A stretch of DNA of 64,000 nucleotides from an uncultured cyanobacterium (lineage in GTDB: Bacteria; Cyanobacteriota; Cyanobacteriia; Cyanobacteriales; Cyanobacteriaceae), in NCBI GenBank assembly GCA_963710605.1, contig CAVQBA010000004.1, positions 416,001 to 480,000 of the forward strand, in the 5' to 3' direction. Below, in pieces: positions 18,204 through 49,421 of the stretch; the first letter of the stretch is position 1, and each line of letters opens with the position of its first letter. The notes beneath the pieces were generated by a model that was not told the origin of the DNA, made no database searches, and was given only the letters and a program-made list of their open reading frames with translations. The position numbers and the translations under genes are program-made.

Positions 18204-18337
18204 AAATACAAGTAAATACTTAAAAAGACATTCTCTCTCCCTTTAAATATAGACACACAAAAATCCATTCCTCTGCTTACTCAGCGTCCTCTGCGGTTGA
18301 TTAAAATATAATTATAAATATCCCAACCAACCCATTA

Positions 18338-18386
18338 GTAACCCATCGTTATAAATGTTGGGTTTCGTTATCTCAACCCAACCTAC
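18338..18386 (-). repeat. Compact GTAG-type REP (GTAGGTTGGGTTGAG-ATAAC-GAAACCCAACA) plus the TAACCCATC half of a partner REP
   Basis: Same arms as the long elements at 41-45 kb but with a short loop. Confidence 0.75.
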
Positions 18387-37062: not shown

Positions 37063-37773
37063 TGCTTTAATTTAGGCATTTAATTATAGATTCAAAAAAG
37101 TATTTGATTTAAAAAGATTATATTTTTTTATTGTTTGAACGAAGATTTGACAATGTTATTTTTTAGCTTTAGAAATAAAAACTAATCTAAAAAAATAAGA
37201 AATAATAGCTATTTTTTGAATTATCTTATCAAAAATTTGTTAATTACTATACTTAATTTAGAACCAAAAAAAATACATTGATAAAGTAACACTTTCACAA
37301 TAAGACCTTTTTCACTGAGTTCTTATGATAGAGTTTTTTTGATACTTGTTTACTCTTCCATTGGAGATATATTAAGATTTTTTACTAACTAACGTACATA
37401 GAATTAAAGTTGTCGTAGTTAAAAGCAACGCTACTGCTAAACCAGCCACTTGTTGATCGATCTCACTCACAAATTCTCGATCGATTGGCAGTGAAAATTT
37501 ATATCTTTCTCCACTTGCCTTTTAAGCTCACTAATGTTATATCGATTATAACTAATTAGTCGAGCTAATCTTGTAATATCTCTGTATATTTTTATTATGC
37601 CAAAAACTGTTTTGGCTAAAAACTGAAAATCGTTATTTTGTCATGAAACGATACTTAATGTAATCAAACTTTAAACAAAGAGTAAACACTTTTAGTACTC
37701 AGCTAACATATATTGTGGTATTTTTTTGTTAAGACCACAATACAATCAGTAATGTGTTTCTCTTGTTAAAAGT

Positions 37774-37878
37774 TCAAAACGACTTAAAGTTGTTGTTGTG
37801 TAACTCTAAAGCTATATTAGCACCACTAGAAACAGTGATAGCTAAAACCAGAAGAAGGCAAGATAAGTTAAAAATCAT
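37774..37878 (-). CDS. Small hydrophobic peptide, 34 aa (MIFNLSCLLLVLAITVSSGANIALELHNNNFKSF)
   Basis: AAGGA RBS upstream; duplicated with 38101-38190; hairpin downstream at 37711-37742. Confidence 0.55.
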   Translation of the reverse strand: MIFNLSCLLLVLAITVSSGANIALELHNNNFKSF

Positions 37879-38100
37879 GATTAATTTCCTTTAAGTGATT
37901 AATTTTGTTCTCACTAACTAATAGGTTTGAGTTTTCGGTAATATGCAGATTTTTCTCAAACAAATTTCAACAAAATATTAATAACCAAAGAAAACAGGCA
38001 GATATAACAGTACTTGTCTAGATACAGATAAACAACAAGTAATCTGTCTGTTTCCCTTATCAGAAGGAATTAAATATTCAAAATATCCTAGAGAGATTAA

Positions 38101-38190
38101 TTAGTCGTCACGTAACGCTAGCATTATATCAGCACCACTAGAAACAGTGATAGCTAAAACTAGAAGAAGGCAAGATAAGTTAAAAATCAT
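38101..38190 (-). CDS. Small hydrophobic peptide, 29 aa (MIFNLSCLLLVLAITVSSGADIMLALRDD)
   Basis: Same RBS and 5' leader as the other copy; first 20 residues identical, with a synonymous CTG/CTA difference. Confidence 0.55.
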   Translation of the reverse strand: MIFNLSCLLLVLAITVSSGADIMLALRDD

Positions 38191-38334
38191 GATTAATTTC
38201 CTTTGAGTGATTAATTTTGTTCTCACTAAATAATAGCCTTGATTTCAAATTTTAGGTAGATTTATTTTTATCAGAAAAATTTGAGATTGTGATCTTAATA
38301 AACTTATTGTCAATAATCAATGGTTAATTGTCAA

Positions 38335-41220
38335 CTATTTCGCTTCCATCCAATTATCTCCTGTATGTACATCAACAGATAAAGGAATATTGAGTTTAAT
38401 CACGTTTTCCATACAATCTTTAATTTTCTCTTGTAACTCATCAACTTCAGATGGAGGTAATTCTAAAACTAATTCATCATGCACTTGCAACAACATATTC
38501 GCTTGATAATCGTCCAAAATTCGATCGACTTCTACCATCGCTAATTTAATAATATCAGCACTAGAGCCTTGTATCGGTGCATTAGCCGCACTGCGTAACA
38601 TTTGGGTGGTGTAATAATCAAACTTAACTTTTGATAAATCGAGGGTATTAATATCGCTACCTGCAATTTTGTCTAACTCTTTTTCAGGAAAATCAAAGTA
38701 ACGTCTTCTACCTAAAATTGTTGTGACATAACCATCAAGTAAAGCTTGTTTTTTAGCATTTTCTAAATAGTTAAATACCCTTGAATATTTAGCACGATAT
38801 TTATCAACAAACTCTTGAGCTTTTTTATTAGAAACTTTTACTTCTCTGGCAAATTTTTGTACCCCCATTCCGTAAATCAAACCAAAATTAATTGTTTTAC
38901 CCATACTTCTTTCCTCAGAAGTAATTTCTTTTTTATCGAGAATAATTTGGGCGGTAACAGTATGAATATCTTGATTGTTTTGATAGGCAGAAATTAAAAT
39001 TGGTTCTTTACTTAAATGTGCTAAAATTCTTAATTCTATTTGTGAATAATCTGCACTCAAAAATTTCCAGTCACCTTGAGGGATAAATCCTCGTCTAATT
39101 TTGCGTGAAAATGCCGTTCTAATCGGGATATTTTGTAAGTTAGGATTAGATGATGAGAGTCTGCCTGTAGCTGTTACACTTTGATTATAATTGGTATGAA
39201 TACGATCGGTTTTAGGATTAATCAGTGTTGGTAAGGCATCAACATAAGTTGATTTTAGTTTAGCTAAAGTACGATGTTGAAGAATTTGTGGAATTAAAGG
39301 ATGATCATCTTTGAGTTTTTCTAATACAACTTGATTGGTAGAATATCCTGTTTTTATTTTTCTAGATTTACGTTTATCTAAGCCTAATTTATCAAACAAT
39401 AATTCGCTTAGTTGTTTAGGAGAAGCAAGATTAAATTCACCAAATTCAGCATAGACATTATTGGTAATTTCGTCTAAATCTTCATTAACAATATAAGAAA
39501 GTTTAGCTAAATAATCTTTATCTACTAATACCCCAGTCTGTTCCATTTTAGCTAAAATCGGTTCTAATTTTAGCTCAAGGTTAAATACTTCTTGTAAATC
39601 TAGATATAAAGCTAATTCGGTTTGTAATTTTTGGGTTAATTGCCACGTGCCTAAAACATCTAAGCCACAATATTGGGCAGTTTTATCGATGCTTAGGTGA
39701 GCGATCGATTGTTTTTTATCCAATCCTAAACTATCATAATCAAGGGCGATCGCTTCGATACCATATTCTTTGCATAAACTACTTAATTTATGACTAGCTT
39801 CTGGTTGTAAAACATAACTTGCCAACATCGTATCAAAGACAACTCCTTGTAAATCAAAACCGTGATTGAGTAAAATGAGACGATCGAATTTACTATGATG
39901 TAATGTCTTCGGATACTTAGGATTAGCTAAAAATGGTTGTAGTGCCGTTTGTATTTGAGCTATAGGTAATTGTTCTCCTTCTTCATGTAGAATCGGTATG
40001 TAAGCAACTTCGTTAGTTAATTTACCCCAACAACAACCAATCCCGACTAAATTAGCGGCTTGAGTATCTAATCCATCGGTTTCGGTATCCCAAGAAGTGA
40101 TAGAAGCTTTTTCTAATATTTCAATCAACTTAGTTAATTTGTCAGTATCATCAACAATTAGAGGTTGTAAGACTATTTCTGATTCGGGGGAAGAAACTGT
40201 TGCCGCTTTTTTAGTTACTTTCTTCTCCTTTTTTGCGGCAGGAAATAAAGATAATTGGTCACTATTTTTAGTATCTAAATTTAAAGGAGAAAAATCAATT
40301 AAAGGATTACCTAATTTTGCTTGTACTTTAGTTAGTTGTTTAATCAGTTTTTTTAATTCTAATTCCTCTAATAAACGAATTACTTCTTTTTGTTCAAAAC
40401 CTGTAAGATGATAATCTTCAAAATTATTATTTAAATCTATATCAGTAACAATTTTAGCTAAAAACTGTGAATGATAAGCACTATCTTTACCGTCAGTTAA
40501 TTTCTTTTTAACTCCTACTTTTAATTCATCTAAATTTTCATAAACATCAGCTAAAGTTTCGTATTCTCCTAACAAACTACTCGCTGTTTTTTCACCGATA
40601 CCTAATACCCCAGGGATACAATCAGATTTATCACCACATAAAGCTTTGAAGTCAACTATTTGTGTTGGTTTGACTTTCATTTTTTCGTAAACTGCTTCTT
40701 CGTCGTATGTCTCGAATTTACCAAAACTTCTACCCATGTATAAAACTTTGACACCACCTTCATCGTTAACTAGTTGAAACAAATCTCGATCGCCTGATAA
40801 AATTCTAACTAGATGATTCTCCTTCATTGCTTGGGTTGCCAGAGTGCCAATCACATCATCAGCTTCATAACCGACGGCGGTAACGATGGGTAAATTTAAA
40901 GCTTTTAACAACAAACGTAAATTTTGAACATCTTCAATAAAATCATCGGGTGCGGGTGGTCGATCTGCTTTATAATTATCATCAGCTTGATGGCGAAAAG
41001 TAGCTTCTTTCAAATCAAATGCGATCGCCACTAATTGCGGTTTAACGTCATTAATAATCGCAAACAAAGAATTAAGAAAACCGAAACAAACACTGGTAGG
41101 AACGCCTGTAGAGGTACGGAATGGTCCCGTACGAGCCTTTGCTAGAGCGTAATAAGCCCGAAATGCTAAAGAAAATCCATCGACGATTAAAAAAGAAGAA
41201 GCACGATCGTTTTCAGCCAT
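38335..41220 (-). CDS. polA: DNA polymerase I
   Basis: VDGFSLAFRAYY, YEADDVIGT, WDTET, TGRLSSSNPNLQNIP, ADYSQIELR, LQVHDEL. Confidence 0.98.
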   Translation of the reverse strand: MAENDRASSFLIVDGFSLAFRAYYALAKARTGPFRTSTGVPTSVCFGFLNSLFAIINDVKPQLVAIAFDLKEATFRHQADDNYKADRPPAPDDFIEDVQNLRLLLKALNLPIVTAVGYEADDVIGTLATQAMKENHLVRILSGDRDLFQLVNDEGGVKVLYMGRSFGKFETYDEEAVYEKMKVKPTQIVDFKALCGDKSDCIPGVLGIGEKTASSLLGEYETLADVYENLDELKVGVKKKLTDGKDSAYHSQFLAKIVTDIDLNNNFEDYHLTGFEQKEVIRLLEELELKKLIKQLTKVQAKLGNPLIDFSPLNLDTKNSDQLSLFPAAKKEKKVTKKAATVSSPESEIVLQPLIVDDTDKLTKLIEILEKASITSWDTETDGLDTQAANLVGIGCCWGKLTNEVAYIPILHEEGEQLPIAQIQTALQPFLANPKYPKTLHHSKFDRLILLNHGFDLQGVVFDTMLASYVLQPEASHKLSSLCKEYGIEAIALDYDSLGLDKKQSIAHLSIDKTAQYCGLDVLGTWQLTQKLQTELALYLDLQEVFNLELKLEPILAKMEQTGVLVDKDYLAKLSYIVNEDLDEITNNVYAEFGEFNLASPKQLSELLFDKLGLDKRKSRKIKTGYSTNQVVLEKLKDDHPLIPQILQHRTLAKLKSTYVDALPTLINPKTDRIHTNYNQSVTATGRLSSSNPNLQNIPIRTAFSRKIRRGFIPQGDWKFLSADYSQIELRILAHLSKEPILISAYQNNQDIHTVTAQIILDKKEITSEERSMGKTINFGLIYGMGVQKFAREVKVSNKKAQEFVDKYRAKYSRVFNYLENAKKQALLDGYVTTILGRRRYFDFPEKELDKIAGSDINTLDLSKVKFDYYTTQMLRSAANAPIQGSSADIIKLAMVEVDRILDDYQANMLLQVHDELVLELPPSEVDELQEKIKDCMENVIKLNIPLSVDVHTGDNWMEAK

Positions 41221-41357
41221 TATAGAGTTAAGAGTTAAGAGTTAAAAATTAAGAATCAATTACTCGATCGTTTCCAATCGTTATGTATTCATTAAATCTA
41301 TTTTAGTAGATAAATACCATACAATGCGTTCGCTTCGATCGATCGTTTATCGTCTCT

Positions 41358-41444
41358 TTAAGCCATCACCAAATTTGTTTGTGTTTTTAAGGTGTTAAAT
41401 GTTGGGTTTGACTTCTATTTTATAGTTTTTTTATTTATTAAGTA
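41358..41444. repeat. Partial long REP-doublet element (R1)
   Basis: CCATCA..GTGTTTTT..AATGTTGGGTTT..TATTAAGTA, cut off at CGATCG. Confidence 0.6.
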
Positions 41445-41470
41445 CGATCGATCGTTCATCGTAGTCGATC

Positions 41471-41638
41471 GTAGGATGGGTTAGGCTACGATACATTATA
41501 ATCTTCAACAAATTCATTAATAACTACCCGTAACCCATCATCAACCTTCAAAGTATTTTAGCGTATTAAATGTTGGCTTTAATTTTTGTTTTATGGTTTT
41601 TTCATATATTAAGTAATTAGCGGTTTAACCCAAACTAT
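41471..41638. repeat. Long REP-doublet element (R2)
   Basis: GTAGGATGGGTTA..ATTATAATCTTCAA..TAACCCATC..AATGTTGG..TAACCCAAACTAT. Confidence 0.8.
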
Positions 41639-41743
41639 AAAATGATAAATTTCTTTCATAAAAAACATATTATTTAATAGTTATAAATGCTAAAATTTGC
41701 TATAATTACTACTAAGAATAGTAAGAATAAATAATTTATTTCA

Positions 41744-42652
41744 ATGAGTCAATTTCCTCATGACGACTTTGTCAAAGAATATTTACCTGAATTAATATCT
41801 AATTATGGAATAGTTGTTTCGGGAAAGAAAATAGCTTCTCAGACTAAAGAGATTGATGTTTTTTTTCAACCTCATAGCAAGGTAATAGATGATTCTAATC
41901 AATTGGGTTTATTACGAAAACTACTAAATACAACCTGTTTATTTGAAGTCTATCGAAATTCAGTCACAGTTAATCAGATAAAAGAATGTATTGGTAAATT
42001 AATGGACGTTACTACTGCAATTACAAGAGAAAACAAAAAGAAAAATAAAGACGAAGAAGAAGTAAATTTATGGATTTTAACTCCTACTTTATCAGAAAAA
42101 ATACTAGAGTCTTTTGGAGCAAAAAGAAAAAATAACTGGGAAGAAGGTATTTACTTTTTAGCACCAGCTTTATCGACGGGAATAATAGTTGTACATCAGT
42201 TACCAGTAAGTGAAAAAACTCTCTGGTTAAGGATGTTAGGTAAAGGAAAAGTGCAGGAAAAAGCCATAGAAGAATTAAATACTTTACCAAAAGATAATCC
42301 TTACAGAGATAGTGTTTTAGAGTTGGTCAGTAATTTATTTACGATGCTACAATTGAACCAAGAAAAAAGGAAAGATTTAACCAAAGAGGATAAGGAATTA
42401 ATTATGAAATTATCACCAGTTTATAAGGCTAGATTAGAAGAAAGAGAACAAATTGGTTTACAAAAAGGGCTTCAACAGGAAGCAACTTTATTAGTTGTTC
42501 GTCAATTAAAAAGAAAAGTTGGTGAGTTATCTCCTAATCTAGAGGCAACAATTATGGGTTTACCTGTTAATGTTTTAGAAGATTTAGGTGAGGCTTTATT
42601 AGATTTTAACTCGGTAGATGATTTAATCAATTGGTTAGATAGTCATGAATAA
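41744..42652 (+). CDS. Rpn-like PD-(D/E)XK protein with C-terminal DUF4351
   Basis: HDDFVKEYL, EIDVFF, LFEVYRN, TLWLRMLG; RQLKRKVG..LEDLGEALLDFNSVDDLINWL. Confidence 0.75.
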   Translation: MSQFPHDDFVKEYLPELISNYGIVVSGKKIASQTKEIDVFFQPHSKVIDDSNQLGLLRKLLNTTCLFEVYRNSVTVNQIKECIGKLMDVTTAITRENKKKNKDEEEVNLWILTPTLSEKILESFGAKRKNNWEEGIYFLAPALSTGIIVVHQLPVSEKTLWLRMLGKGKVQEKAIEELNTLPKDNPYRDSVLELVSNLFTMLQLNQEKRKDLTKEDKELIMKLSPVYKARLEEREQIGLQKGLQQEATLLVVRQLKRKVGELSPNLEATIMGLPVNVLEDLGEALLDFNSVDDLINWLDSHE

Positions 42653-42725
42653 TACTTATGCCTTAGTGCTTCTGGTCAAAAATACGATCGTTATTCTACA
42701 ACGATAAAACCTCGAATTAATTGTC

Positions 42726-42901
42726 GTAGGATGGGTAATAGCTTAATAGCTTGAACCATTATAATCTTCAACAAACTCATCAATAACGAGTGCCGTAACC
42801 CATCATCAACTTTCTTTGTGTTTTTATTGTTGAATGTTAGGTTTCGTTTTTATAATGCATTCTTGATCTATCAGTGGTTTTGATGCTTAACCGCTCTTTA
42901 C
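42726..42901. repeat. Long REP-doublet element (R3)
   Basis: GTAGGATGGGTAA..ATTATAATCTTCAACAAA..GTAACCCATCATCAAC..AATGTTAGGTTTCG..GCTTAACC..TTAC. Confidence 0.8.
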
Positions 42902-42963
42902 AAGATTGGCTACTATAATAGACTTTTGTGTAACTCAACAAAATTATTTTTGACAATTAGTGT

Positions 42964-43242
42964 ATGTTAGAAGAAGATTATTTAGACACGGCTTTAGGGT
43001 TAATGATATTTTGCTTCGGATGGGGAATTTTTGCTTACTTATTTTTGTTTACAAATGGAAGTAGCGATTCATTAGGATTAGCTGTATCTGCTAGTGGGTT
43101 TATTAGTCCTACTTATAATATTGAGCCTCATGGTATTTGGCGTTTATTAGTAGGTATATTATGTTTAATTGGCAGTCTTTGTTGTGGTAGTTTGAGTGTT
43201 TATTCTATTTATCTTTATATAAAAGACAAAAAAGCAAACTGA
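42964..43242 (+). CDS. Hypothetical two-TM membrane protein
   Basis: 92-aa ORF lying between R3 and R4. Confidence 0.6.
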   Translation: MLEEDYLDTALGLMIFCFGWGIFAYLFLFTNGSSDSLGLAVSASGFISPTYNIEPHGIWRLLVGILCLIGSLCCGSLSVYSIYLYIKDKKAN

Positions 43243-43301
43243 TCAAGATTAATCAAACTTGAAAATTGATAACGATCGTAAGTAAGATCGTTTATCACAA
43301 A

Positions 43302-43460
43302 ATAGGATACGCAATTATTAATTATAATCTTTAATAAATTGATTAATAACTTAGTTGTAAAGCATCATTAATTTTCATTATCTTTTTAGTGTTAAATGTT
43401 GGGTTTCGCTTTTGGGATGTCTGGTGTCTATATTAAGTAACTAGGCTCAACTAAAGCTAC
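43302..43460. repeat. Long REP-doublet element (R4)
   Basis: ATAGGATACG..ATTATAATCTT..AATGTTGGGTTTCGC..GCTCAAC..CTAC, followed by AAGTCGATCG. Confidence 0.8.
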
Positions 43461-43485
43461 AAGTCGATCGTTAGTACTCTAATCC

Positions 43486-44124
43486 TTAACTAAAAGTAAT
43501 TAATAAATTATACTTAATACTAGCTAAAGACATATGATATAGTACCAATAAAACTAGTTTTTCGTCTGCAAGAATATCAGCTTTATCGAATAATTCATCA
43601 ACTTTTGAATCGTATAAAGAATCAAAATTTGTACTATACGTACCTAAATCAAATTTTAATTGATTTGCTAATTTTTTTAATTCATTACGAAGACTAATAC
43701 TCGAACCTAAAGTATTTAAAAATCGATCGGGTACATATATATTTTTAAAGTCAACTGGTACATAATATCCACTACCATTTAGTTGGGAATGTAAGATCAA
43801 ATGTGACTGCTTTTTTCCAAAAATCTCTGATAAAATCTCATTTGTGTAATTTGTTGTCTTGTCAAAAAGTAACGAATCACTTTGGGGTGTCCATTTGGGA
43901 TTGTATTCTAATTCGATTGCAATAATTTTTAAATTTTTAAATGCCTTTCTTACCCATCTAGACAACTGTATAGAGGAAGGTTCAATCTCATTTGGTAATG
44001 TATCACTTAACTTTACGTCATAATTATCAAGACCATAAGAATTCAATTTGTCGTTAACATATTTGTAACGTTCAAAAAAGAATTCACTCTTTAAATCTTC
44101 CATCAATTCAATAAATACAGACAT
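43486..44124 (-). CDS. Uncharacterised protein (SHLILHS..GYYVPVDF..LGSS..LRNEL motif)
   Basis: 212-aa ORF lying between R4 and R5. Confidence 0.7.
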   Translation of the reverse strand: MSVFIELMEDLKSEFFFERYKYVNDKLNSYGLDNYDVKLSDTLPNEIEPSSIQLSRWVRKAFKNLKIIAIELEYNPKWTPQSDSLLFDKTTNYTNEILSEIFGKKQSHLILHSQLNGSGYYVPVDFKNIYVPDRFLNTLGSSISLRNELKKLANQLKFDLGTYSTNFDSLYDSKVDELFDKADILADEKLVLLVLYHMSLASIKYNLLITFS

Positions 44125-44169
44125 TATTTTTATAAACTATCATCAAATACGATCGCTTATCTTAATAAA

Positions 44170-44333
44170 ATAGGATACGTAATTACTAATTATAATCTTC
44201 AATAAATTTATTAATAACTTAGTTGTAACCCATCGTTAATTTTCATTATGTTTTTAGTGTGTTGAATGTTGGGTTTCGCTTTTATAATGTATCGTTTGTA
44301 TATTAGGTAATTAGTCGCTCAACCACAACCTAC
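44170..44333. repeat. Long REP-doublet element (R5)
   Basis: ATAGGATACG..GTAACCCATCG..AATGTTGGGTTTCGC..GCTCAACCACAACCTAC, followed by AAGACGATCG. Confidence 0.8.
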
Positions 44334-44380
44334 AAGACGATCGTACTACCACTGCTTGCGATCGTCAATCAATCAGTTAT

Positions 44381-44917
44381 TCATTTGTTAACATTATTTT
44401 TTTCTTCTATTTTTTGTAATGCTTCTTTAAACTCTGATATTAAATCTCTTATAAATGAAGGAATAGCAAATCCAATGATTATCCAAATAATCCCAGAAAT
44501 TTGTATTTGTTTAGAAATGTTTGAAAGATGAACTAAACCACCTAACAAGAGTGGAATGATACCGAGTAAGCTATATATTGGAGAGGAAAACATAGATTTA
44601 TAAGGAATTGCTTTACCCTTTTCATTAAATGTTATCCTTATACTACTTCCAAACAAAGTATATAAAGTTTTACTAATTATTTGATTTTGGTTATATTTAA
44701 TAATGGCAAAAATATAATTAACTGATAAAAAATTAAAAAATCTCTCAAAGATATAATTTTTAGAACTATCAATCAAATCTTCATCTTTATTAACTTTTCT
44801 TATTTTATAAATAGATGAATATTTTTGAAGATAATAAAAATTATTTAACCAAATAAATATACTTACAGATAAAGCTATTAACAATTCGATAAACATACAT
44901 ATAATTATTGTTTTCAT
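44381..44917 (-). CDS. Hypothetical membrane protein
   Basis: 178-aa very AT-rich ORF with 3-4 hydrophobic segments, between R5 and R6. Confidence 0.6.
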   Translation of the reverse strand: MKTIIICMFIELLIALSVSIFIWLNNFYYLQKYSSIYKIRKVNKDEDLIDSSKNYIFERFFNFLSVNYIFAIIKYNQNQIISKTLYTLFGSSIRITFNEKGKAIPYKSMFSSPIYSLLGIIPLLLGGLVHLSNISKQIQISGIIWIIIGFAIPSFIRDLISEFKEALQKIEEKNNVNK

Positions 44918-45140
44918 TTTAATCTTGATGATAGTAAATCAAATAATTTTGTAAAAATGACAGGTACGAAAATACCTTGTTTGATACCATAATTAACAAA
45001 AGCTGTAGGATTAATCTCTCGAAAAAACTGTGTCACCTATTTTTTTTGATTTTAACGCCATCAAGAAATAATCATTAAATTTTGTACTTACGCCCTTAAT
45101 CCATTGAATAGCTTCAGGACTAAGTGTAACTGTATCAGTC

Positions 45141-45253
45141 GTAACTTATCATCAGCTTTTATTACGTTTCTAATTGTATTAAATGTTAGATTTTGCCTTT
45201 ACTAAGATGTATCGTTTATCTATTAAGTAATTATTCGCTCAACCACAACCTAC
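45141..45253. repeat. Partial long REP-doublet element (R6)
   Basis: GTAACTTATCATCA..AATGTTAG..TATTAAGTAATTATTCGCTCAACCACAACCTAC. Confidence 0.7.
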
Positions 45254-45566
45254 AAGACTAATAATCAAGAAAGACGATCGCACTCTTTTATAATTGTCCT
45301 TAATATTACAGCAACTTTTAAAACAATAACTAATCGATCGAAAATTAAAAATCCTGTTAATCAATTAATCTTGTCTAATCTTGATATAGACAGTGGAGAA
45401 ATAGGTAGTCCTTATCGTCAAATCCATTTGTCTATTTATTATTGGTTATTCGATCGATGTTATGATTAAGTTTTATGTAGTTAATTTTACTATTGCTTCT
45501 TTTCCCTACACAAAAAGTAAGTAGAGAAAGCCGATTGTAATTGATAGTTACCAAGTAAAATAATTT

Positions 45567-47360
45567 ATGAAAACTAAAACACAAGATAATGACTGGGGAT
45601 TATTATTAAAACTTCTTCCTTACGCTAAGAAAAATTCTCGGACATTAATTATTTCCTTATGTTTACTAATTCCCTTATCCCTAGCTGGTGCGGTGCAACC
45701 ATTACTTGTTGGGCAAGCTATTTCTTTATTAAAAGAAGAAGAAACATGGGATTTTTTGCAATCTTATCCGTTATCCCAATCATTAGATATACTGGGTTTG
45801 ATTTTACTTTTTTCAATTATAATCAGAACAGGTTTTCAAGCATGGCAAGGGTTTTTAGTCCAAAAAGTGGGGCAAGAAGTTACCGCCTCTGTACGCCAAG
45901 ATTTATTTAGTCATGTTACTTCTTTATCGTCTAATTTTTTCCACAAAACTCCTGTCGGTAAATTAGTTACTCGTATTACTAGTGATGTGGAAGCTTTAGG
46001 AGATGTTTTTGCTACAGGTGCGATCGGTATCCTCAGCGATTTGGTTTATATTTTAGTTATCATCATCACTATCTTTACTTTACAGTGGCAACTCGCTTCT
46101 TTATTAGTAGCAATGTTGATTCCCGTCACCGCATTAATTATTTATTTCCAAAAACAATACCGTAAAGCTAACTATGCCGCCCGTGAAGAATTATCGGTTT
46201 TAAACTCGATGTTACAAGAAAATGTTGTCGGTATTAATATCGTGCAATTATTTGGACGAGAAAAGTATAACAGTGAAATGTATCGTACTGCAAACGATCG
46301 TTATCGTATTGCTGTGGATAAAACAATCTTTCATGATTCGGCTGTCTCGGCTACTTTAGAATGGATTGCGTTAGTAGCGATCGCTGGAGTATTATGGTTA
46401 GGAGCAGTTTTTATCCTCCAAGACACACTTAGTATTGGTGCATTAAGTGCTTTTATTTTATACGCTCAACGTTTATTTGATCCTCTGAGACAATTTGCCG
46501 ACAAATTTACCATGTTTCAATCGGGATTCACGGCTATCGAAAGAATTACCGAATTGATGAGTATTCCTGCTGAGATTAAAGACCAAGATAATAATATCAG
46601 TTTGGGAACACATAGCGATCGAAATAGAATTGGCGAAATCAGATTTGAAAACGTTTGGTTTGGTTATAAAGCCGATGAATATATCCTAAAAGACTTAGAC
46701 TTTACCATCAAACCAGGTGAGAAAATTGCTTTAGTTGGTCCTACTGGTGCGGGTAAAAGCTCAATAATTCGTTTGCTATGCCGTCTATACGAGCCAAACC
46801 AAGGGCGTATTTTAGTTGATGGGGTGGATATTAAAGACATCGATCAAGCCGAGTTACGTCGTCATATCGGCGTAATTTTACAAGAAAGTTTTATTTTTGC
46901 AGGGGATGTTAAACGTAATATCACTTTAGGCGAAGAATACGATTTTAATCAAATTAAAAAAGCCGCTGAAATTACCAACGTCGATCGATTTATTACCAAC
47001 TTACCTGAAAGTTATGATACCCAATTAAGAGAAAGAGGGGCAAATCTGTCTGGAGGGCAAAAACAACTACTCGCTTTTGCTAGAGTCGCTATTCGTAATC
47101 CTAATATTTTAGTTTTAGATGAAGCAACTTCAAGTTTGGATGTAGCTACAGAAGCAGATACCCAACAAGCGTTAGAACATTTATTAGTAGGTAAAACAGC
47201 AATTATTATTGCTCACCGTCTTTCTACTATTCGTAATGTCGATCGTATTTTTGTACTCAAACAAGGAGAATTGATCGAATCGGGTAGTCACGAACAATTA
47301 TTAAGACAAGATGGATTGTATGCTAGTTTATACAAATTACAAATGTTGAGCAAAGCGTAG
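45567..47360 (+). CDS. ABC exporter, fused TMD-NBD (MdlB-like)
   Basis: GPTGAGKSS, LSGGQKQ, LVLDEATSS, IAHRLSTI. Confidence 0.93.
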   Translation: MKTKTQDNDWGLLLKLLPYAKKNSRTLIISLCLLIPLSLAGAVQPLLVGQAISLLKEEETWDFLQSYPLSQSLDILGLILLFSIIIRTGFQAWQGFLVQKVGQEVTASVRQDLFSHVTSLSSNFFHKTPVGKLVTRITSDVEALGDVFATGAIGILSDLVYILVIIITIFTLQWQLASLLVAMLIPVTALIIYFQKQYRKANYAAREELSVLNSMLQENVVGINIVQLFGREKYNSEMYRTANDRYRIAVDKTIFHDSAVSATLEWIALVAIAGVLWLGAVFILQDTLSIGALSAFILYAQRLFDPLRQFADKFTMFQSGFTAIERITELMSIPAEIKDQDNNISLGTHSDRNRIGEIRFENVWFGYKADEYILKDLDFTIKPGEKIALVGPTGAGKSSIIRLLCRLYEPNQGRILVDGVDIKDIDQAELRRHIGVILQESFIFAGDVKRNITLGEEYDFNQIKKAAEITNVDRFITNLPESYDTQLRERGANLSGGQKQLLAFARVAIRNPNILVLDEATSSLDVATEADTQQALEHLLVGKTAIIIAHRLSTIRNVDRIFVLKQGELIESGSHEQLLRQDGLYASLYKLQMLSKA

Positions 47361-47450
47361 ATTAAGAATTGAGAATTGAGAATTGAGAATATACTCATGA
47401 TCATTGTAAAAATTATTACTTATTTACTGTAAATTATCTTTCACTAATTT

Positions 47451-49421
47451 ATGTCTAAACCACGTTTTCAATTCAATAAACAATTATGGCAACGTTTTAT
47501 TGAATCAGCCCAACCTTACTTTTTTCCCTGTAGAAAGACGACAGACAAGAATTTTTTTAGGCTTGATTCTGGTTTTGCTTGTCTTTGTTGTTTCTTTTAC
47601 TTTCTTTTTTACTGTTGCTTTAACTGAGTTAGCAAAAGCACTTTTTCCTGAATTTTTTGGTAAAGCCGCTCAAGGTTTGATTGAAAATGTCGATAATTTA
47701 CTGGCTTCTCCTGCACCTTATGTCTTTGTTGTATTGTTGATTGGTAGTATTTTAATTTTTGCTTCTCAACGTCAAAAATTGAGACAACGTTTGCCTCAAT
47801 GGTCGTTATTAGGGGTTTTACTGTTTTTATTATTCGTTGTTAATGGCTTGAATGTTATTTTGAGTTTTGCTTTCCGTTTGATAGATAATGCCCTCAATGA
47901 GAAAAACACCGAAATTTTCTGGCAAAACATGATTATCTATGGAATTGTTTTGGTGTTAGCAATTCCGATTATTGTTGGTTATCGATATATAAGACAAAAG
48001 TTAGGTTTGTTATGGCGAGAATGGTTGACTAAATATTTTCTCGATCGTTATTTTCGTCAACGGGCATATTATGAGTTAGATTCGAATTCTATTAATACTA
48101 ATATAGATAATCCAGATCAACGTATTACCCAAGATATACAATCATTTACGGCTGTTACTCTTGACTTTTTATTAGATATTCTCGATTCGATTCTTACTCT
48201 ATTTTCGTTTACTGCAATTTTATATGGTATTTCTACAACCTTAACTGGGGGATTATTAATTTATGCCACTTTTGGTACGGTTGTCGCTATTGTGGTGGGT
48301 GCGCGTTTAATCAGCATCAATTACGAGCAATTACGTTTAGAAGCTAACTTTCGTTACAATATGGTGAGGGTAAGAGATAACGCCGAATCGATCGCTTTTT
48401 ATCAAGGTGAGCAGTTAGAAAAAAGACAGGTTATCGATCGTTTAATGGATGCTGTCAGAAACTTTGATTTATTAATTATTTGGCAATCGATTATCGTTTT
48501 ATTCCAGTTAGGATATAACTATTTTACTCGCTTGATTCCTTATCTAATTATCGCTCCGCTATATTTTGCAGGAGAAGCTGATTTTGGTGCAATCGGGCAA
48601 GCGGCTTTCGCTTTTTCGATGGTATTAAGTGCTTTATCTTTAATCACTAACCAAATTCAAAGTATTAGTGGATTTGCCGCTAGTGTCAACCGTTTAGGAG
48701 AGTTTTATGAGTCTTTAGACGATCCCAGTGGAGAAAAAAGAAATCCTAAATTTACTAGTATTTTAACTGAAATAGACGATCGTATTAGTCTAGAAAACGT
48801 CACTTTACAACCACCTAATTCCGATCGAATTTTAATTCAAGACTTATCATTAGTCGTTAACCCAGAAGAAAATTTATTAATCATGGGTGCATCGGCAGTG
48901 GTAAAAGTTCGCTCCTTAGAGCAATAGCAGGATTGTGGAATACAGGAGATGGTGTTATTAATCGCCCCAACCTAGAAAACTTGTTATTTTTACCTCAACG
49001 CCCTTACATGATTTTGGGTACATTAAGAGAACAATTACTTTATCCTAATACCGCCAATCAAGTTGATAACGATTATCTACAACATATATTAGAGACAGTT
49101 AATTTACCTAATTTAGCCGAACGTTTTACCGATGGATTTGATACCAAAGAAAATTGGGAAAATGTGTTATCTTTAGGAGAACAACAACGGGTTGCATTTG
49201 CTAGAGTTTTAATTAGTCAACCTCGTTATGCCATCTTAGACGAAGCGACAAGTGCCTTAGATGTCAACAATGAAGAAGTACTTTATCAAAAACTTGCCTC
49301 TCAGGGAACAACTTATGTCAGTGTAGGGCATAGACCAACTTTAACCGATTATCATCAACAGTTGTTGGAAATTACCGAAGGAGGAGAATGGGAGATAAAA
49401 CAGATAACGTGCGAACAGTGA
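47451..49421 (+). CDS. ABC transporter of the ABC_membrane_2 (ABCD/YddA-like) type; frameshifts near 47525 and 48897
   Basis: Start MSKPRFQFNKQLWQRFIESAQPYFF; IDNPDQRITQD, EANFRY, broken Walker A GAS(G)SGKSS, LSLGEQQR, LDEATSALD, SVGHR. Confidence 0.88.

Follow-up and report, generated by a model that had tools for sequence, protein, structure and literature searches.

The window analyzed here is a 64,000-nt stretch of contig CAVQBA010000004.1 (positions 416,001 to 480,000; assembly GCA_963710605.1) from an uncultured cyanobacterium of the family Cyanobacteriaceae. Between polA and the gene of an ATP-binding cassette (ABC) exporter it contains, at 41358-45253, an array in which non-coding repeats alternate with single open reading frames (ORFs). 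This array is probably a local and largely decayed cluster of doublets of repetitive extragenic palindromes (REPs), which belong to a genome-wide family, and the repeats probably did not bring the genes in. Coordinates without a contig label refer to the window, while C1 to C7 denote the contigs of the genome from which it comes (G000). The cyanobacterial nature of this genome is borne out by 11 matches to phycobilisome proteins, which among 14 control genomes were obtained for Synechococcus only.

Six related elements on the same strand (R1 to R6) had been noted at this place in a first, sequence-only reading of the window, and they were confirmed by a repeat search, an alignment and an nhmmer profile. 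The repeat search of the window recovered a 25-nt core in six copies, all on the plus strand (41392, 41563, 42827, 43389, 44259, and 45176), as well as a 50-nt left-half family in four copies (41476, 42739, 43302, and 44170). Mean column identity in the alignment of the six copies is 64%. R2 to R5 are full doublets of ~160-170 nt, each consisting of a left (L) and a right (R) module; R1 and R6 are 5′-truncated, with the left part gone. The doublets take up most of each spacer. Module limits in the window were set with an nhmmer profile trained on the whole genome:

41358-41470, + strand: R1, 5′-truncated doublet (repeat search, alignment, nhmmer match at C4:457359-457444).
41471-41541, + strand: left module of R2 (R2-L), GTAG present, stem of 9/9 bp, intact.
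41567-41637, + strand: right module of R2 (R2-R), decayed, stem pairs 6/8, CTAC gone.
42726-42806, + strand: left module of R3 (R3-L), GTAG present, stem pairs 8/9, 8-nt insertion in the loop.
42831-42893, + strand: right module of R3 (R3-R), decayed, truncated 3′ arm, pairs 4/8, CTAC absent.
43302-43368, + strand: left module of R4 (R4-L), both arms mutated (pairs 4/9), GTAG gone.
43393-43460, + strand: right module of R4 (R4-R), mutated 3′ arm (pairs 5/8), CTAC present.
44170-44236, + strand: left module of R5 (R5-L), mutated 5′ arm (pairs 6/9), GTAG gone, 90% identical to R4-L.
44262-44333, + strand: right module of R5 (R5-R), CTAC present, stem intact except for a 1-nt insertion in the 3′ arm.
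45141-45253, + strand: R6, remnant of an L 3′ arm followed by a right module at 45180-45253 (R6-R), pairs 6/8, CTAC present.

What is left of R1 is a mutated 3′ arm of L, the spacer and, from R, the 5′ arm with a portion of the loop; its R 3′ arm and CTAC are missing, and no hairpin was obtained on folding. Stem and tag are both intact in R2-L, in R3-L and, apart from the 1-nt bulge, in R5-R, which is the best-preserved right copy of the array (covariance-model score 73.6 bits). The other six of the nine modules have lost stem or tag. Folding as single-stranded DNA gave the clean family hairpin for R2-L and R3-L only, and an imperfect one for R5-R. The left and right hairpins described in the earlier reading are a composite of several copies, both arms and the tag having persisted in these three modules only. 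No Rfam match was obtained in the array; the only matches in the whole window are three tRNAs.

A profile built from R2 to R5 gave 69 matches on all seven contigs. After the two halves had been split, an iterated nhmmer search converged at 34 L and 76 R modules of ~72 nt, likewise distributed over the seven contigs. The L consensus reads GTAG-GATGGGTTAGGC, an AT-rich loop of ~40 nt and GCCGTAACCCATC; the R consensus reads GTTGGGTTTCGC, a loop of ~40 nt and GGCTCAACCCAAC-CTAC, and R-module homology stops exactly at CTAC. The GTAG tag is present in 22 of the 34 L modules and CTAC in 53 of the 76 R modules of the genome (2/4 and 3/5 in the window). The outer arm of L resembles the reverse complement of the R outer arm, 50 of 65 aligned positions being identical, mostly in the arms. 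Since these arms are nearly the same, an L-then-R doublet represents two inverted REPs with their GTAG tags outside; 17 such doublets were counted, with gaps of 19-50 nt. The possibility that L is a full-length inverted copy of R was rejected, as the loop alignment was equalled or beaten by 315 of 500 shuffles.

All array copies are included in the 110 modules, which are ~72 nt long with ~45 nt between arms of 8-9 bp and thereby lie outside the size of short REPs. Within this genome, a length of 20-40 bp with a small loop was found for six short copies only (25-27 nt between the arm ends). One of these six is in the window, at about 18357, where it is part of a compact doublet that differs from the long-loop doublets:

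18325-18385, + strand: L 3′-arm remnant and, 7 nt further on, a canonical 29-nt REP ending in CTAC (C4:434350-434389).

The palindrome CGATCG occurs 8300 times in the 3.93 Mb of the genome, compared with 87-1138 occurrences for four other 6-bp palindromes that were counted. In 23 of 58 R modules, most often at +6 to +8, a copy follows the CTAC end within 35 nt; among random intergenic 35-mers the share with a copy is 6.6%. Examples in the window are found at 41325-41470 and 44330-44365.

The repeats are almost exclusively intergenic (109 of 110 modules) in a genome that is 78% coding. All counts of intergenic regions carry some uncertainty, because the gene list was obtained with a home-made ORF caller based on codon bias. 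According to this list, modules occupy 81 of 3482 intergenic regions. Among these, convergent spacers are enriched (28 of the 81 occupied regions vs. 607/3482, or 17%, overall), and divergent ones are depleted (8/81). The array fills five consecutive intergenic regions; the longest run in random placements was four, reached in 3 of 5000. Adjacent occupied pairs number 20, whereas 5000 random trials gave 1.9 on average and at most 8; the clustering thus exceeds chance. Altogether, there are 11 runs of occupied spacers: the array with five, which is the longest, two runs of four, two of three, and six of two. In 9 of the 11 runs the repeats are direct, and neighbors are mutually closest relatives. 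One of the runs, at C1:330403-331690, is the only one that consists of L modules alone, with three direct solo copies alternating with two ORFs (154 and 125 aa) without a Pfam match. The family also occurs singly at ~50 ordinary spacers.

The copies in the window share features that were not found elsewhere in the family. The L-loop motif ATAATCTT is present in all four L modules of the window and in none of the 30 others, and the R-loop motif GTAA[CT]TA in four of five R modules of the window and in none of the other 71. The conserved loop motifs quoted in the sequence-only reading therefore hold within the array and do not extend to the family, as they are private to the array copies. Seven of the nine window modules have their closest relative among the other window copies, with identities of 90% between R4-L and R5-L and 84% between R5-R and R6-R. 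The shared private motifs point to one local founder. Homology between neighboring array copies stops within ~15 nt of the element, from which it follows that the genes did not travel with the repeats. In addition, the array is more decayed than the rest of the family: stem and tag are intact in 2/4 L and 1/5 R modules of the window, compared with 13/30 L and 46/71 R modules elsewhere.

The family is accompanied by transposase genes. REP-associated tyrosine transposases (RAYTs) were called with the NCBIfam model NF047646 (REP_Tyr_transpos) at a cut-off of 80 bits, and two intact genes were found, encoding 180 aa each, at C4:589683-590129 and C2:30869-31315 (205 and 208 bits). Their products are 73% identical to each other, and one of them matches E. 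coli TnpArep (PDB 4ER8) with an E-value of 9.5e-36 and contains the HUH (DHIH) and YIHYNP motifs. The gene on C2 is located between R modules in inverted orientation, while the gene on C4, ~128 kb from the array, has an L plus an R module on one flank and a 29-nt short REP on the other. Because both intact RAYT genes are flanked by the same modules, the assignment to the REP/RAYT systems is supported. The proposal that the GTAG-tailed hairpins are of REP/REPIN type (REPIN, REP doublet forming a hairpin) was thus borne out by the family tag, by doublets of the head-head (HH) type and by the flanked RAYT genes, for which the earlier reading had suggested a search. Its assumption of an enzyme acting in trans also agrees with the data, since neither an integrase nor a RAYT gene is present at the locus and the two intact RAYT genes lie elsewhere.

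A genome scan with PF01797 yielded seven strong IS200-type genes (136-166 aa) and five weak matches, two of which are the intact RAYT genes. Three further genes of the Y1 type were observed. The one at C2:137882-138247 is RAYT-like and interrupted by TGA (92 bits on NF047646), and the one at C1:190168-190452 is a fragment with a TAA. The third, at C1:347610-348152, is intact and encodes 180 aa with 31% identity to the RAYTs, but its score of 68.6 bits lies below the cut-off. The Y1 gene closest to the array is ~128 kb away.

The right module is a long-loop derivative of the canonical 29-nt GTAG-type REP of sister genera. G018 and G007 are two relatives whose orthologous RAYT genes (214.6 and 204.7 bits) have at their flanks a 29-nt REP that shares its arms and CTAC tag with the present family. 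The covariance model of the R module, for which the best 150 candidates per genome were scored, gave the following matches:

G000 (the genome of the window): 73 matches, mostly ~72-77 nt, at least four of ~40 nt.
G001 (same genus, 67% complete): 4 matches of 58-81 nt, three of them 75-81 nt.
G007, G010, G012, and G018 (orthologous RAYT, ≥179 bits): 18-29 matches each, mostly short (~40 nt).
G005, G031, G002, and G009: 6, 3, 1, and 1 matches, respectively, of mixed forms.
Ten other genomes of the family: 0 matches.

The 15 relatives outside the four with a RAYT of at least 179 bits thus have 0-6 matches. The pattern of the L module was found 12 times in G000 and not in the 19 other genomes of the family. 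The short form flanking the RAYT gene in relatives, together with the match lengths, indicates that the long-loop forms are derived and limited to this genus.

The surroundings of the array are not conserved among the relatives examined. polA is present in all 30 relatives searched, with identities of up to 74%, and in 10 polA flanks from relatives neither an ABC exporter nor an array ORF was found beside polA, nor a module. The genes neighboring polA in G001, G009, G017, and G015 map to scattered places in G000. A metagenome scan with the ABC exporter returned 24 loci, the best being 82% and 78% identical, and the nine that were examined showed neither synteny nor a REP. Gene order is scrambled around both polA and the ABC exporter in every relative examined. 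For G001, none of the three R copies with an identifiable neighbor adjoins a gene whose ortholog in G000 is next to a REP; the fourth copy is on a short contig and has no identifiable neighbor there.

E. coli TnpA-REP cleaves and rejoins single-stranded hairpins at the GTAG tag. By analogy, the RAYTs of the present genome may cut and rejoin such hairpins at this tag and copy the elements in trans. A founder doublet beside polA would have been copied in the same orientation into four neighboring spacers of an AT-rich stretch of accessory ORFs, either through RAYT-mediated transposition over a short range or through local recombination or conversion, and point mutation would since have worn the copies. 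On this view, genes would be found between the repeats because intergenic spacers are what the repeats colonize.

Several observations weigh against parts of this reading. Copying by a RAYT is put forward here from the membership of the repeats in the family, and the data do not separate local hopping of the doublet from its tandem duplication or gene conversion. At C6:258.5-260.2k, C6:565.2-566.8k, and C2:64.3-65.1k homology extends 25-75 nt or more past the module, which points to segmental duplication at these three other arrays. The clearest repeat of a whole gene is the 780-bp tandem at C6:565.2-566.8k, in which two genes encoding pentapeptide-repeat proteins are 81% identical. Moreover, genes flanked by repeats on both sides (n = 20) differ from the rest by a shorter length (median 172 vs. 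240 aa, p 0.007) and a reduced coding score (p 0.002), as a model of mobile gene cassettes predicts likewise. Covariation gave no support for the hairpin, all five measures being reached by 39-347 of 500 shuffles. Over 30 R copies, 97.5% of the cells in the outer 8-bp stem are paired, and covariation is uninformative either way because the stem arms are almost invariant. Finally, the outer stem is disrupted in eight or nine R copies by a terminal AACCGTTCCCTAC.

This R sub-family ends in AACCGTTCCCTAC or a near variant instead of AACCCAACCTAC, by which three outer-stem pairs are broken. Its modules are located at C1:184458, C3:5588, C6:565971, C6:814245, C6:844980, C7:6425, C7:466469, and C7:500442, and no compensating change was seen in their 5′ arms.

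The genes within and beside the array were characterized as follows:

38335-41220, - strand: polA (DNA polymerase I), left boundary of the array (Pfam DNA_pol_A, E-value 1.7e-144).
41744-42652, + strand: DUF4351 (Rpn-like) protein of 302 aa (PF14261, E-value 8.2e-23).
42964-43242, + strand: hydrophobic ORF of 92 aa, without family match or paralog.
43486-44124, - strand: ORF of 212 aa, member of a rare family of unknown function (sequence-cluster search).
44381-44917, - strand: hydrophobic ORF of 178 aa with a guanine-cytosine (GC) content of 21.8%, one paralog with 44% identity at C7:368400-368954.
45567-47360, + strand: ABC exporter, right boundary of the array (Pfam ABC_membrane and ABC_tran).

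This gene content, confirmed by Pfam, NCBIfam and the ORF list, agrees with the one unrelated gene per interval in mixed orientation that had been described earlier. The four enclosed genes are oriented + + - -, show no kinship to one another and all have a positive codon-bias score according to the home-made ORF caller. The DUF4351 protein has at least eight paralogs in the genome, with identities of 47-76%. The ORFs of 92, 212, and 178 aa have no match in Pfam or NCBIfam; the labels "two-TM" and "membrane" given to two of them earlier are based on reading the translations by eye. For the 212-aa ORF, a word-indexed search returned only the ORF itself, and the cluster search returned 49 representatives at E ≤ 0.001, the best being a 49% identical hypothetical protein of Cyanothece sp. 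BG0011. Domains of recombinases or integrases were found neither with Pfam in the seven ORFs of 38335-48927 nor with NCBIfam in the four array ORFs. The region 43200-45400 has a GC content of 19-29%, compared with 33-37% in polA and the ABC exporter gene.

Two further observations concern these surroundings. A stretch of ~1.27 kb (37063-38334), bounded by a 155-aa ORF and by the polA 3′ end, has 20-30% GC, contains no ORF of ≥50 aa and gave no Rfam match. In addition, a fragment of a DUF4351/Rpn-like gene, 49% identical to the window copy over the first 95 residues, was found at C4:958442-958837 in another REP-rich stretch (C4:955.0-959.6k); the other paralogs are not beside modules.

A further observation is an association of R modules with small genes encoding pentapeptide-repeat proteins, 12 of 49 of which touch an occupied spacer, compared with 142 of 3489 genes overall. 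The odds ratio is 8.3 (Fisher p 3e-7, with paralogs that are not independent). In 18 of 19 R-gene pairs the R module is on the strand opposite to the gene, typically 3-231 nt past the stop codon. Such loci were found at C2:64253-65787, C6:258527-260214, C6:565191-566821, C4:411688-412545, and C2:82201-83077, as well as at C1:183928-184524, C1:276376-277030, C7:5783-6491, and C7:499492-500511. Recent duplication does not explain the association, because most of these genes are mutually only 30-50% identical. The genes were detected by a count of periodic [DN][LFM], which gave a clean bimodal split and agreed with the positions of the Pfam matches; it misses at least one gene, C2:30070-30615, where the ORF caller picked the antisense frame.

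The sequence-only reading had proposed that the array is a gene-capture platform with attC-like repeats. The direct doublets would then serve as recombination sites, between which circular units of a gene plus a doublet are inserted and excised by a RAYT or by RecA-dependent crossover, a reading to which little credence can be given. The RAYT would have to treat two directly oriented ends like the left and right ends of IS200/IS605, looping units out and reinserting them, which is equally doubtful, and it appears very improbable that the REP-gene-REP runs, here and beside pentapeptide-repeat genes, form an integrase-free cassette system in cyanobacteria. All six elements are indeed direct, with exactly one ORF per interval. 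The enclosed ORFs are of accessory character (one belongs to a rare family and two are singletons, with low GC and coding score), genes flanked on both sides are small throughout the genome, and repeated integration at one site would also leave shared private motifs. However, six of the nine modules no longer have the stem or tag on which a structure-specific enzyme would depend, neither integrase nor RAYT is encoded at the locus, and the enclosed genes are in mixed orientation. Except for the DUF4351 gene and the 44% paralog of the 178-aa ORF, no enclosed ORF is duplicated elsewhere, and no paralog has the same flanks. The repeated unit in other arrays includes flanking DNA or a whole gene, which indicates plain duplication, and the pentapeptide-repeat genes flanked by R modules are too divergent to be recently moved copies. 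Ten other REP-gene-REP runs exist, so that the locus is not a dedicated platform. Repeats equally at home beside ordinary genes had been named in advance as evidence against gene capture, and this is largely what was found, since the 122 genes bordered by a repeat on just one side show no difference from the remaining 3347 in length (p 0.47), GC (p 0.13) or coding score (p 0.93). With stem decay, a single founder and homology ending at the element, the proposed platform received no positive support.

A function retained by the host is unlikely as well. REP and bacterial interspersed mosaic elements (BIMEs) of enterobacteria have been proposed to act on flanking genes, and the doublets might likewise stabilize transcript 3′ ends, insulate genes or bind nucleoid proteins. 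This would suit the enrichment at gene 3′ ends that is seen in the convergent spacers, the position and orientation of R modules downstream of pentapeptide-repeat genes and the share of each array spacer that the doublets occupy. The array copies are, on the other hand, the most decayed of the genome, with stems lost; promoter-like sites show no excess (30 vs. 27.1 in shuffles, sd 5.7), none of four terminator-like matches lies inside a module, and Rfam gave no match in the array. It is extremely unlikely that the modules are ends of an IS200/IS605-type element, such as a transposable element of the palindrome-associated (PATE) or miniature inverted-repeat (MITE) class, moved by an IS200-type TnpA and not by the RAYTs. 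Ends of IS200/IS605 elements likewise carry subterminal hairpins, and the genome encodes the seven strong IS200-type matches mentioned above. None of these seven genes is flanked by modules, though, and only one has a module within 1 kb, whereas both intact RAYT genes are flanked; the GTAG tag and the co-occurrence of REP and RAYT across relatives also fit the RAYTs.

A local cluster of decayed REP doublets thus remains the probable explanation, and it has consequences for annotation, as the integron-like array consists of REP relics and its repeats should be masked as a REP/REPIN family and should not be listed as recombination sites. Within a single cyanobacterial family, one and the same stem and tag take the shape of a canonical 29-nt hairpin in four genera, beside an orthologous RAYT in each, and predominantly that of a 72-nt long-loop form in this genus. 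If the RAYT copies the long-loop modules, recognition would need only the tag and the foot of the stem, and the loop-size filters of two REP-detection protocols, as far as these are set out in the text available (PMC3733652; PMC6006769), would miss such families. The strong, orientation-specific link of R modules to pentapeptide-repeat genes bears on gene regulation or targeting and is unexplained.

Systems of REPs or REPINs with RAYTs were reportedly described by Nunvar in 2010, Bertels and Rainey in 2011 and Ton-Hoang in 2012. GTAG REPs have been reported in Anabaena, Nostoc, and Cyanothece; in the available parts of that work, HH dimers are the commonest REP dimer, REPs are situated mostly between co-directional and convergent genes, and REP clusters recur as local repetitions that can include the adjoining DNA (Di Nocera et al., 2013; PMC3733652). 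The same parts define REPs as 20-40 bp long, mention a largest loop of 27 bp, which is self-complementary, and describe a pruning step that dropped repeats with unusual loops (PMC3733652). RAYT subclasses in cyanobacteria have also been listed, with detection rules that, in the portion available, assume short loops (Quentin et al., 2018; PMC6006769). Judged by the available text, the present family resembles the GTAG REP superfamily in the GTAG abutting a G-rich stem, in its extragenic and multi-copy occurrence, in HH dimers with the tags outside, in the preference for co-directional or convergent spacers, in a RAYT flanked by repeats (REPtron) and in the co-occurrence of repeat and RAYT (PMC3733652). 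The array doublets are HH dimers in the terms of Di Nocera et al., with a layout as in REPINs. Unlike the REPs known from these partly available sources, the copies are mostly ~72 nt long, with an unpaired AT-rich loop of ~45 nt between arms of 8-9 bp. Each doublet combines two unlike REP types, between whose loops no homology was detected, and two intact RAYTs with 73% identity are present instead of one.

As in BIMEs and large REP clusters, REPs of two types occur in alternating orientation and are repeated locally, at times along with neighboring DNA, as far as the accessible text describes them (PMC3733652). Unlike in BIMEs, the reiteration is not compact within one spacer and extends over five successive spacers with whole unrelated genes between them. 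The array shares with integron attC arrays direct, imperfect-hairpin repeats alternating with single ORFs and the idea that folded single strands would recombine. In contrast to integrons, neither an integrase nor attI is present, the genes point in both directions, and single copies of the repeat are also found at ~50 ordinary spacers. In attC sites the structure is conserved and the sequence is free, whereas here the sequence has been kept by descent and the structure lost. Neisserial arrays of dRS3 and neisserial intergenic mosaic elements (NIMEs) and the "minimal mobile elements" place REP-type repeats in variable intergenic regions between conserved genes. The clustering of REP-type repeats between conserved genes is similar here, where it is known from one strain. 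In the parts of their article at hand, Di Nocera et al. equate dRS3 with the CGTC-1 REPs (PMC3733652). Taken together, the repeats form a REP/REPIN-RAYT family of a known kind, and their long-loop architecture is a new structural variant.

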